Source: Octopus vulgaris (lineage: Eukaryota). Taken from it: a DNA stretch of 64,000 nucleotides. Made by a program: the position numbers and the translations under genes. The DNA is taken from the NCBI GenBank assembly GCA_951406725.2, contig OX597821.1, positions 68,262,001 through 68,326,000 of the forward strand, in the 5' to 3' direction. The notes under the pieces were generated by a model. It was not told the origin of the DNA. It was given only the letters and a program-made list of their open reading frames with translations, and made no database searches. This document shows, one piece after another, positions 27,403 to 40,013 of the stretch. Position 1 is the stretch's first letter, and every line of letters begins with the position of its first letter.

Positions 27403-27872
27403 TGTTAATGACTAAGAAAGAGCGTAAGCAAGTAGGCAGATGGTAAAGCAGGGAGAGGGTATGGGGTGAAGTTCATAAAGAAAAAGTGGTTGAGAGCAAG
27501 ACAAGATTGGAGCGCCAATAAATTGGATGCTTTCTTGAGGAGAGCAAAACTTTCCGTCGTAAAAAAAACTGAAGCCAAGTGGTTTACTTTAGTTGTGAAT
27601 GTGTGTTTGCGTGAATGAGTATATGTCTGTACAAGCATGTATATTTATGTGTCTATGTGACTGTTTATTAATATGGGTGCATATAGACGTAGGGCCGTGG
27701 CTGTGCGGTAAGTAGCTTGCTTACCAACCACATCGTTCTGGGTTCAGTCCCACTGCGTGGCACCTTGAGCAAGTGTCTTCTACTATGGCCTCGGGACGAC
27801 CAAAGCCTTGTGAGTGGATTTGGTAGACGAAAACTGAAAAGAAGCCTGTCATATATACATATATATATATAC

Positions 27873-28561
27873 ATAGTGACCACTCTCTTATATTTATTTT
27901 GTAAAAATATTATAATATGTTATAAAATATTATAATAATCCAGGTTTCTCGTAGCACTAGGCCACTTGGTGTTGAATAAATATACTATTAAATTAGTATC
28001 TAATTCTCTCACCCTTATTAATTAATTATAATTATGCTGCATTTATTTCTAAATGCTGTATTTGTTTTCCGTGAAAGTTTGGCGCGCTGTTGGTTGGGGC
28101 ATTTGAATTATAACGTCGGATGTAATCAATTGAACCACACGCGTATTTATCGTTATGGTAAAATCTGGCGTGTGATTGAGTGGATTTCATCAAGATAGTC
28201 TTGGCTGACGAGCTACAAATGGATTTTTTTGTAAGTAATATTACATTTAATTCATTAATAGCGAAACAATTGTCCCAAAATAATCTGTATTTTTGTTATT
28301 TTTTATTTGCCCTGTCCGTGTGAGCTAACAGTCGTACTGGCTTTCATGGGAAACATGTATTTTCGTGGTTGAAACCTTTTAGATTAACTGGTGCTAGAGT
28401 GAGCAATATAGTGACCACTCTCTTATATTTATTTTGTAAAAATATTATAATATGTTATAAAATATTATAATAATCCAGGTTTCTCGTAGCACTAGGCCAC
28501 TTGGTGTTGAATAAATATACTATTAAATTAGTATCTAATTCTCTCACCCTTATTAATTAAT

Positions 28562-28565
<4 letters not shown>
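27873..28565 (+). mobile_element. 535-bp-period retrozyme/PLE-like element with identical 158-bp terminal direct repeats
   Basis: 27873-28030 equals 28408-28565 with no mismatch seen. It contains an intact HHR motif and is flanked by (TA)n. Confidence 0.88.
28201..28278 (+). ncRNA. Type I hammerhead ribozyme with extended stem II
   Basis: TTGG-CTGACGA-GCTA...[aatgga/ttcatt; tgtaa/ttaca]...TAGC-GAAA-CAATTG-TC-CCAA. All core nucleotides are canonical and stem III is palindromic. Confidence 0.8.
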
Positions 28566-28617
<52 letters not shown>

Positions 28618-28906
28618 GATGTATTATGTATGTGTGTATGTGTGTGTGTGTATTTGTGTGTCTGTGTTTGTCCTTATCACCATCGCTTGATAACCGATGC
28701 TGGCGTGTTTACGTCCCCGCAACTTAGCGATTCGGCAGATAAAATAAGTACTAGGCTTACGAAGAATAAGTCCTGGGGTTGATTTGTTCGACTAAAGGCG
28801 ATGCTCCAGCACGGCATCAGTCAAATGACTGAAACAAGTAAAAGAATAAAAGAATATATATGTATGTATGTGTGTATGTATGTATGTGTGTATGTATGTA
28901 TGTATG

Positions 28907-29323
28907 TCTCTTCTATTCTTTTATTCTTATAAATCTTCCACTGAGGAGGGAGCCGGTTTCCAACAAAGATACAAGGCTCCATCTTTGGGCTGTAGTTAAC
29001 ACAGACAAATTCCCATTTCGAACTTGAGAAAAGTCTTGCATATATTTACTGTTCCACTTGTAACGTACGAATTAGCGGGTCGATTTCTCTTTCTGAAAAT
29101 CCTAGTTTATCCAGATTCTCCTTTAAGCATTTACTAATAAAATCTAGTGCTCCAATTGTTATCGGTATGAATATGTATTCATAGTCTGGATATAGAAACT
29201 GGAGGTTTCGAAGCAGCTGTCCATAGATATCCACTTTTTCTTTGACTTTCAGAGATATCTATATCTACAGCGCATCTAACCTCTATGATGGTACATACCT
29301 TTGCCCCTCTGTCCCAAACAACA
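28907..29323 (-). mobile_element. 5'-truncated 3' end of a restriction-like-endonuclease non-LTR retrotransposon (R4/Dong-like), frameshifted
   Basis: Translates to VVWDRGAKVCTIIEVRC...KEKVDIYGQLLRNLQFLYPDYEYIFIPITIGALDFISKCL...GTVNICKTFLKFEM, typical of the RLE C-terminus (K...Y and IGALG-like motifs). The 3' UTR has AATAAA followed by (TACA)n. Confidence 0.85.
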
Positions 29324-29385
29324 TGTATGTATGTATGTATGTATGTATGTATGTATGTATGTATGTATGTATGTATGTATGTATG

Positions 29386-29660
29386 CAAATTTGTATGTTT
29401 TGTTTTATGTATATATCATCATGCATATAGTTGCATATCTAGACATGCTCATATATATTTAAATGATAAACTTCTGGAAAGTTTTACAGATTTTTACAAT
29501 TCCAGTGATGGATTGGATCTGTTGTCTTCGAATTGGCTTTTTCCATTCTGGTTTTGAGAAGCATAATATCTCAAGATTGGTATTTAGGCAGTGTGGTTAC
29601 ATATCCCAGGGCCCCAATAATTACAGGTTTGAACCTGAACTTGTAATCTAGATAGAGTAT
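29386..29660 (-). mobile_element. Second, distinct R4/Dong-like 3' end
   Basis: LYLDYKFRFKPVIIGALGYVT/CLNTNLEILCFSKPEWKKPIRRQQIQSITGIVKICKTFQKFII* (one frameshift). Different 3' UTR; (TACA)n on both sides. Confidence 0.85.
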
Positions 29661-29737
29661 TATGTATGTATGTATGTATGTATGTATGTATGTATGTATG
29701 TATGTATGTATGTTTGTATGTATGTATGTTTGTATGT

Positions 29738-29886
29738 AGAAGAAGAAGAAGAAGAAGAAGAAGAAGAAGAAAAAGAAGAAGAAGAAGAAGAAGAAGAAGA
29801 CGAAAAAGAAGAAGAAGAAGAAGAAGAAGAAGAAGAAGAAGAAGAAGAAGAAGAAGAAGAAGAAGAAGAAGAAGAAGAAGAAGACG
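29738..29886. repeat. (GAA)n
   Basis: Seen directly. Also at about 43278-43377 and 43777-43890. Confidence 0.97.
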
Positions 29887-30065
29887 ATAACAACAGAAGC
29901 CAGCGTTTTATTTGTATTGTTATTGATACATTTCACCATAGAAAGGCGGCGAGTTGACAGAAGCGTTAACACGCCGAGCGAAATGCATAGCTGTTATTCC
30001 TAATTGGATACCTGTAATTTTGATCTTAAGGATTAGTCCATAACATTGACTCCAGTACCTGACTG

Positions 30066-30463
30066 TTACTCTTTACTCTTTTACTCTTTTACTTGTTTCA
30101 GTCATTTGACTGCGGCAATGCTGGAGCATCGCCTTTAGTCGAGCAAATCGACCCCAGGACTTGTTCTTTAGAAGCTTATTACTTATTCTATCGGTGTCTT
30201 TTGCCGAACCGCTAAGTTACGGGGACGTAAACACACCATCATTGGTTGTCAAGCGATGTTGGGGGGACAAACACAGACATACAAACATATATACACACAT
30301 ACATATATATGATGGGCTTCTTTCAGTTTCCGTCTACCAAATCCGATCACAAGGCTTTGGTCGACCCGAGGCTAGAGTAGAAGACACTTACCCAAGGTGC
30401 CACACAGTGGGACTGAACCCGGAACCATGTGGTTGGTAAGCAAGCTACTTACCACAAAGCCAC
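30066..30463 (-). mobile_element. SINE family A, near full length, inside family B remnants
   Basis: Homology to 8715-9111. Family B-like sequence lies on both sides (about 30030-30065 and 30465-30600). Confidence 0.9.
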
Positions 30464-31467
30464 TTTATTTTATCGATCTTAAAAGACGAAAGGCAAAGTT
30501 AAGTTCGTCGGGCTTTGAACTCAGAATATAAGAGCTCATACCCAAATATATAATGCAAAGTATTTTTCCCGCCTCTCTATCGATTCTACCGGTCAACCAC
30601 TATATCTTATGTAGACATAGTCATACAATGAATTATATCTGCTGCTTCCGCCATTGTTATAAACCCTCATAGAACTTTTACCTCTACAAAGATGCATTGT
30701 CTTGAACTTTTCTAACACGCAGTATTACAGTTATTGCAGTGTTTTTCTTCTTTCCTCGTCTGTTCTTCCGAGTGAAAAATTTACGTTCACTAATCCAAAA
30801 AAGAACCCCCTCCTCATATAGAATTTGCGTGACCGGAATCTGCCGTAGGCTGCTTTTAAAATCGATCTGTCTTGTTCTTGTTGGATATGCATCTGAACGT
30901 AATTGTCTTTTCTTCCATTTACTCAGAAAATTCTTTTTCTGAATAATATTATTTCTTGCTCCCCACTGCCTTAGAGCCATACCTCTTCCATTTATTCATC
31001 CATCATATTGAGTTCTTGCCGAGCATATACAGCTCCTTCAGATGTATTTGCTCCCGTCGTTTTTATCCCAAAGCCAACCCATATTGAATACATATATGAT
31101 CAAAGTCATTCCGACCATGACCATCCACTATATTCAGAAGAGTGAGTGATTATTTATTTCATGATTCTATTTTAAGTGAATTATATCTGCTTAGCCTAGA
31201 GATTAAAGCGTTCGGTTTGGGATCATAAGATCATCTGTTCAAATCCCAGACAGGGCGGAGCGTTGTTTCCCTGTCCAAGGCGCTTCATTTCGCTTTGCCT
31301 CGATTCATTCAGTTGCAAATGAGGACCAGCTCAGTTTTATTCGCGTACATCTCTCAGTGGTCACATTCCAGATGTTCGGCTGAATTAAAAGCCGAGAAGC
31401 TGTTCATATTTGTTCGTAGCTACATTGACATCTAAAACAATGAACGAAAACTTAGTCCATGGCCCCC

Positions 31468-38680: not shown

Positions 38681-38715
38681 ATATATATATATATTTATAT
38701 ATATACACACACATA

Positions 38716-39305
38716 TTAGAGGGAAACCACTATGTGGACACCCTTATGCTAGAAATAGATCCGCTATGGTCTTACCACTAAGAAGTGTTCTCAAGAAAAA
38801 TTTAGCAAAACAACTAAAACGTAATCGAGCAAGACAAAAGAAAAAGCAATAAAAATACGGATTATTCGCATACATGTTTCACTATCAACATATCACGTAA
38901 TTTTACTTACATAAATGTCCGTAGATCATCGATGCGACCGTCCAGATGAATATAATTTGTTGAAAAAAAGCTATAAAAAACCTATTTATTATTACGACAG
39001 AAATTTTTCTTCTGGCCTGGGGAGACAGTCAGAAAGTTGCGGCCTTTTGCAACAACCTACCTTTGCAAACAGGGATTTTCCACTCTAATGAACATAAAAA
39101 CAGAGCAGAGTAATCGAGTGGGTCCTAATGACTGTATCCAAATTGCTCTGGCATCAAAATGTCCCAATTTTGATGTAATTGTAGCAAAAATGAAATGACA
39201 TAATTTCTCCAAAACTTGAAGTAAGAATGTTTCTAGAAAAATCTTTTTGTTTCATAATGAGAATATTGATTTATTTTATTGCATTTGTTTTATACTTTTT
39301 ATATA
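38716..39305 (-). mobile_element. TA-bounded element with an extended-stem-II HHR motif (38866-38937)
   Basis: Minus strand: TCGCA-TCGATGA-tCTA...atgtaa GTAAAA ttacgt...TAGt-GAAA-CATG-TA-TGCGA. Element ends are approximate. Confidence 0.65.
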
Positions 39306-39560: not shown

Positions 39561-40013
39561 TACCCTATTACTCTTTTACTTGTCTCAGTCATCTGACTGC
39601 GGCCATGCTGGAGCACCGCCTTTAGTCGAGCTAATCGACCCCAGAACTTATTCCTTGTAAGCCTACTACTTATTCTGTCGGTCTCTTTTGCCAAACCGCT
39701 AAGTTACGGGGACGTAAACACACCAGCATCGGTCGTCAAGCGATGTTGGAGTGACAAACACAGACACACAAACATATACACACACACACATACATACATA
39801 CATATATATAAATATATATATATAGATATATATATATGTATGCATATATACGACGAGCTTCTTTCAGTTTCCGTCTACCAAACCCACTCACAAGGCTTTA
39901 GTCGGCCCGAGGCTATAGTAGAAGACAGTTGGCCAAGGTGCCACGCAGTGGGACTGAAACCAGAACCATGTGGTTGGTAAGCAAGCTACTTACCACACAG
40001 CCACTCCTGCGTC
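39561..40013 (-). mobile_element. SINE family A, full length
   Basis: Homology across head, body and tail. Confidence 0.92.

Follow-up and report, generated by a model that had tools for sequence, protein, structure and literature searches.

Introduction

The metazoan non-LTR retrozymes described by Cervera and de la Pena in 2020 (PMC7229834) are non-coding, low-GC tandem units with one type I hammerhead ribozyme per unit, as is the element reported here, and, again as here, they co-occur with Penelope-like elements. They yield abundant circular RNAs (PMC7229834); how their arrays are read through, how the circles avoid cutting themselves and which cis-signals are required are open questions (PMC7229834; PMC7761336). 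A recent preprint links non-LTR retrozymes with the pseudo-LTRs found in Penelope-like elements (bioRxiv 10.64898/2026.07.22.740005), and these elements are described as carrying introns in the 5' UTR whose start lies in the pseudo-LTR (PMC8557442). The Penelope element of Drosophila virilis likewise has a splice signal inside a Penelope-type hammerhead, and different ribozymes have been proposed for its spliced and unspliced RNA (PMC4209133). In mammalian RNAs, 5' splice-site motifs that stay unspliced are reported to act through U1 and to keep the RNA nuclear or chromatin-bound (PMC9074902, 10.1101/310433).

We analysed a 64,000-nucleotide stretch of Octopus vulgaris DNA (the window). It contains a real, although so far predicted, hammerhead ribozyme with a conserved donor-like motif in its stem II, and there is no conserved 101-nt intron attached to that motif.

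Results

A family-1 retrozyme insertion

The element is an insertion of 698 bp into a (TA)n tract and carries a 163-nt direct repeat at a spacing of 535 bp (Table 1). At least 215 genomic matches belong to the same family (family 1), a lower bound obtained by scoring 40 of 1,088 candidates; among the matches listed, identity is 95-100% and many stand in 535-bp tandem and inverted arrays. A 20-nt segment of stem II has 2,267 exact matches in the genome, and family 1 is an ORF-less 535-bp tandem retrozyme with more than 2,000 copies. No open frame of at least 120 aa was found over the element, and tblastn of the genome's own Penelope-like ORFs against the window gave no match; the element has no ORF for the reverse transcriptase and GIY-YIG nuclease by which an autonomous Penelope-like element is recognised. 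The GC content is 0.34 in the 2-kb bin that includes the hammerhead (28001-30000). With a type I hammerhead core and three helices, short tandem units and non-coding, low-GC sequence, the element fits a non-LTR retrozyme of the metazoan kind. The (TA)n tract around it separates two parts of a common interspersed repeat (27680-27850 and 28620-28860), presumably SINE-like, that recurs at 30080-30470 and 39570-40010.

Table 1. Features of the retrozyme loci; positions are those of the window, except for the pseudo-LTR in the last line.
Feature	Position	Strand	Evidence or remark
Family-1 retrozyme insertion	27873..28570	+	1.3 copies of the 535-bp monomer within a (TA)n tract
Terminal direct repeat, 5' copy (partial monomer)	27873..28035	+	99% identical to 28408-28570
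Stem I, 5' strand	28198..28204	+	pairs with 28275-28281; two-sided changes in 6/6 counted pairs, 30 sequences
Catalytic box CTGACGA	28205..28211	+	motif match
Extended stem II	28212..28262	+	base of 4 bp, then internal loop, long helix and apical hairpin; 3/3 counted foot pairs covary
GTAAGTA, 5' splice-site-like (GTRAGTA), predicted U1 site	28231..28237	+	G90 T90 R91 A90 G87 T89 A89 of 91
GAAA box (28263-28266), palindromic stem III CAATTG, GTC site	28263..28274	+	predicted cut after C28274
Stem I, 3' strand including the conserved AAT bulge	28275..28286	+	alignment and pair counts
CAG, proposed acceptor, not conserved	28329..28331	+	family 1: 925 AG, 1,221 non-AG
Two downstream AG columns, candidate acceptors	28389..28397	+	28390-91 (GG in this copy) and 28396-97; A85/G82 and A83/G87 of 90
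AATAAA and ATTAAA hexamers, possible polyadenylation signals	28510..28527	+	near the 3' end of the monomer; weak
Element 2, a truncated member of a homologous retrozyme family	38714..38960	-	core 38932-38926 (TCGATGA), GTAAGTA 38910-38904
Neptune-like pseudo-LTR region	L094:744-1310 (G000:C6); also L091-L093, L096-L098		504-bp pseudo-LTR

Hammerhead architecture

The type I core, the GTAAGT at 28231, the GAAA box, the T-rich tract and the CTAACAG that ends at 28331 (101 nt) all stand where the initial annotation had placed them, and GTAAGT does lie in the apical hairpin of an extended stem II, where GTAA forms the 5' strand of the helix and GTAATA the loop. The 55-nt fold of stem II has a z-score of -4.86, none of 200 shuffles being equally stable, and a pattern of the core, TGTAAGT and GAAAC has 1,374 matches in the genome against 16 for the reversed control, many more than chance would give. 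The Rfam scan gave no match at the gathering score for the hammerhead, probably because stem II is so long.

For comparison beyond family 1 we used a search pattern made of the hammerhead boxes without the GT motif, which had 733 matches against 129 for its control. The first 100 of the 733 gave 96 distinct matches, six of which were excluded for non-homologous flanks; the remaining 90 copies and the window copy make a superfamily alignment of 91 sequences in 23 clusters, with a mean between-cluster identity of 71%. Among 30 of these sequences (one or two per cluster), every counted pair of stem I and of the stem II foot shows two-sided changes, and RNAalifold agrees with the pairing, so that the predicted ribozyme fold is evidently under selection. 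The core itself varies at column 28206, where 22 of the 91 copies, whole clusters included, have CCGATGA and not CTGANGA.

The initial annotation had allowed that the apical loop might be conserved for a tertiary contact. The usual contact of stem I with stem II is more probably made at the internal loop, which lies 4 bp away from the core and some 17 bp below the apical loop.

A donor-like motif as the most constrained stretch outside the core

GTRAGTA, which we take to be the intron-side donor consensus and, from +1 to +7, fully complementary to the 5' end of U1 snRNA, is the most constrained stretch of the superfamily once the catalytic core is set aside, and its variation follows that of 5' splice sites alone. 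GTRAGT is present in 82 of the 91 copies, the GT being nearly invariant (Table 1), and the columns 28231-28237 show 14 tree changes, the fewest among the 185 windows of seven columns that leave out whatever the search pattern had itself fixed; these changes amount to few independent events because the clusters share ancestry. The sole shared variation is A or G at +3 (17 copies with G, four changes), which as GTAAGT/GTGAGT matches the 5' splice-site consensus, and all other departures are scattered single copies, among them one divergent copy (L200) without G+5. The bases G+5, T+6 and A+7 are unpaired in the fold and yet retained in 87-89 of the 91 copies. Within family 1, GTRAGT is kept in 2,158 of 2,267 copies, GTGAGT also occurring, once in tandem; as this rate is near that expected from low neutral divergence, the argument rests on the comparison across clusters.

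Two other roles for the motif were considered and rejected. The motif TTATGTAA, presumably a transcription-factor binding site, is broken in the GTGAGT lineages, and a downstream CTTAC that could pair with GTAAG over a long range is lost in family 1 and several clusters and shows no compensation with GTGAG.

The proposed 101-nt intron

The sequence from 28231 to 28331 had been read as an intron; its removal would take out the catalytic 3' half of the ribozyme and so give a splice-versus-cleave switch. Every canonical motif for such an intron is present in the window copy, of the 13 copies in another cluster 11 also have AG there, and in D. virilis an intron is described as overlapping the Penelope hammerhead (PMC4209133). 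The AG is nevertheless found in only 925 of 2,146 family-1 copies (Table 1) and in 17 of 89 across the superfamily, one of the 17 being a family-1 copy, with GG in 32 and TG in 25. All 100 of the non-AG family-1 copies listed have AA, many of them in long arrays of recent age, and the AA variant is also present in contigs of the set X14 (5,524 of a summed depth of 14,194; see below). A lack of AG conservation had been named beforehand as part of what would refute the intron, and it is observed: the A column alone has undergone 10 parsimony changes. The donor is kept and the proposed acceptor is not, and the 101-nt intron is therefore unlikely.

The remaining signals point the same way. CTAAC adjoins the AG and is specific to family 1; its branch A, itself not conserved, would lie 3 nt short of the intron's end, and no conserved branch point at a usable distance was found for 28231-28331 in the superfamily alignment. 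The conserved TAAT at 28281-84, after the cut site, was rejected as a branch point as it sits in the stem I bulge. No spliced junction of 28230 with 28332 was found among the genomic copies, although elements of the Penelope type frequently retain their introns. No ORF follows the intron, and in the displayed part of the alignment no conserved acceptor that could serve splicing from one unit into the next was seen 5' of the ribozyme. An ATG in stem II (28219-21) was considered as a start before a phase-0 intron and discarded; it is unconserved across clusters, and the spliced frame would have about 22 codons.

Four contig sets from four studies (X1, X2, X6 and X14), presumed to be RNA, were compared with family 1 only. 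The sole joint in them is the unit-to-unit junction, present in all four, which circular RNA, tandem DNA and multimers would yield alike. Unspliced contigs cross the donor (X14 record 11) and the cut site and acceptor (X2 record 21, X6 record 30). As contigs drop rare forms, the lack of a splice joint is a weak negative. Over window positions 28036-28570 the X2 contigs also differ in clusters, by A>G at 14 places and by T>C at 7, which suggests A-to-I hyper-editing of both strands.

Taken as a conserved mechanism, then, the 101-nt intron is largely refuted, and we regard the switch built on it as very improbable: the donor half of the original interpretation stands, with GTRAGTA conserved, and the intron half falls with the unconserved AG. 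A donor, a T-tract and an AG in one copy of an AT-rich repeat are no evidence of an intron.

Possible other acceptors and the search for an autonomous partner

The donor could still be truly spliced to another acceptor, at 28390-91 or 28396-97 (about 160-167 nt), in downstream host exons or in an autonomous parent element, and such splicing would again remove the 3' half of the ribozyme. The two AG columns are retained in 82-87 of 90 copies, and 5'-UTR introns of the pseudo-LTR are known in Penelope-like elements (PMC8557442); family 1, for its part, has GG at 28390-91, and of 30 sequences 28-30 pair these positions with 28337-38. Pair counts favour a stem of 28390-91 with 28334-28339 as likely, a stem that RNAalifold does not predict. 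Inspection showed neither a conserved branch point nor a zone free of AG ahead of these AG columns, and no contig of the four putative RNA sets joins the donor to either of them. One unexplained contig (X6 record 27) does leave the element near the donor, behind 28225; its break comes 5 nt ahead of the GT, and it continues for about 300 nt of other sequence, a 24-nt probe from which has no match in the genome. As to a parent, 150 of 6,136 GIY-YIG candidates were scored and 44 loci examined, among which no autonomous element with the 535-bp monomer was found. On this evidence, splicing to another acceptor is improbable.

The main GIY-YIG family has a different, short hammerhead-like motif and no blastn match to either retrozyme element. 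The genome holds a Neptune-like autonomous element with intact frames of 479 and 781 aa (RVT_1 and GIY-YIG), which also inserts in (TA)n and is without the 535-bp monomer. Its pseudo-LTR (L094; Table 1) has TATAAAA at 793, a donor-like AAG|GTAAAA at 871 and a hammerhead-like core TTGATAA at 1141, and in the loop of the hammerhead-like stem II there is an acceptor-like TTTCAG or TTTCAAG at 1159, upstream of the ORF1 ATG at 1307. L094:871-1159 is thus a candidate intron that would end inside a ribozyme and remove six upstream ATGs. If this intron is real, the splice-versus-cleave logic would suit the Neptune-like element better.

Element 2 and a second family with long stem II

The initial annotation had seen the same layout recur at 38.9 kb in an otherwise dissimilar element. 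The shared layout is confirmed, as element 2, on the minus strand, has the same hairpin at 38910-38897 and an AG at 38815-38814 (97 nt). The dissimilarity is not: the alignment with element 1, the family-1 insertion, runs from the ribozyme on into the region downstream, and in longer copies it takes in the 3' end as well. The common layout therefore reflects descent, and element 2, being a homologue, lends no independent support to the intron. Its AG is nearly private, found in one of the 15 other full-length copies of its family displayed, and with TCGATGA in place of CTGANGA its ribozyme is likely inactive. A dispersed repeat at 38974-39300 (three listed copies, 86-87% identity) adjoins its 5' break.

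A second non-coding family has a type I hammerhead with long stem II (L222-L246, e.g. L231:1290-1812; some copies exceed 1 kb) and gave no alignment with family 1 above shuffles. Its apical hairpin is TTGTAA-TAC-TTACAA; with TAC as its loop it has no GTRAGT on the sense strand, and GTAAGTA occurs in antisense only, as an inversion of the loop would give.

Discussion

A possible U1 site or a structural hairpin

We tentatively prefer to see in GTRAGTA a U1 snRNP site that has no acceptor and sits on a weak hairpin, where it would probably help read-through or nuclear retention, and would give this reading a little less than an even chance. The signals themselves do not all favour it. Half of GTRAGTA lies within the predicted helix, which would hinder U1, and A or G at +3 is equally permitted by G-U wobble. 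In favour of U1, the four pairs that hold GTRA show no two-sided change in the 30 sequences, whereas all nine of the counted stem I and stem II-foot pairs do; the partner strand of GTRA drifts between TTAC, TTGC, CTGC and TTAT. Against it, the three bases before GTRAGTA (TRT) and those they pair with change little either and have no match to U1, so that the constraint covers the whole apical hairpin and not the donor alone.

Such a pattern, in which the apical helix and loop are kept with their non-U1 positions included, would also be left by a structural or protein-binding element in which the match to a donor is a relic or a coincidence, a reading that we consider possible if somewhat unlikely. 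The unalignable long-stem-II family speaks for the hairpin and against U1, having the same TGTAA/TTACA helix with a different loop and without the sense GTRAGT. Candidate partners would be Penelope's reverse transcriptase, a host protein by which the circle's ribozyme is blocked, or a second tertiary contact. A Penelope hammerhead is reported to have required its own protein for cleavage (PMC11167929), and the circles of metazoan retrozymes are thought to be blocked by something beyond self-pairing (PMC7229834). Against a purely structural role, the best-kept window is exactly the donor from +1 to +7, while the loop positions +8 to +10 differ between lineages, and the internal loop near the core is the better candidate for the usual tertiary contact.

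Returning to the U1 site, the life cycle of the element may be pictured as follows. A transcript of a tandem array would cut itself after position 28274 of every unit, and these monomers would circularise and be copied back by a Penelope-like reverse transcriptase, as in the known retrozyme model. The apical helix, with A-U and G-U pairs around one G-C pair, may be kept weak so that it opens for U1. The bound U1 would favour read-through past an AWTAAA near the unit end and hold the RNA in the nucleus, and may also slow the re-cleavage of the circle. AWTAAA is found there in 23 of 35 copies and 9 of 14 clusters (shuffle mean 5.0); that it is missing from the other 5 of the 14 speaks against this part of the U1 reading. 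An ancestral Penelope pseudo-LTR, with its 5'-UTR intron, is the probable source of the donor. The fuller proposal, by which U1 docked on the hairpin grafted onto stem II gates the hammerhead, setting read-through, the timing of cleavage and the nuclear retention of circular RNA without any splicing, is in our judgement unlikely as a whole.

Comparison with known systems

In the freely accessible literature searched, by title and beginning of the abstract, we found no donor motif in the hammerhead stem II of a retrozyme and no splicing-independent U1 site in a ribozyme or retrozyme. The sites of the latter kind that are described, in retention, telescripting and as pseudo-5' splice sites, likewise consist of a conserved 5' motif without a partner acceptor and are reported for mRNAs, lncRNAs and introns (PMC9074902, 10.1101/310433, PMC13100119). 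The intron of D. virilis Penelope is documented, has its 3' end in helix I and belongs to an autonomous element (PMC4209133), whereas here the 5' site lies in stem II, the element is non-coding and no acceptor is conserved at the proposed place. Compared with the metazoan retrozymes of PMC7229834, the monomer is longer (535 bp against about 300-390 bp) and stem II is extended by a long hairpin. Metazoan retrozymes are further reported to show no conserved motif that indicates their partner (PMC7761336), in contrast to the conserved donor-like motif of this superfamily, which offers a sharply defined 7-nt signal that persists across lineages sharing only 71% identity and that could be altered by mutation while the catalytic core is left intact.
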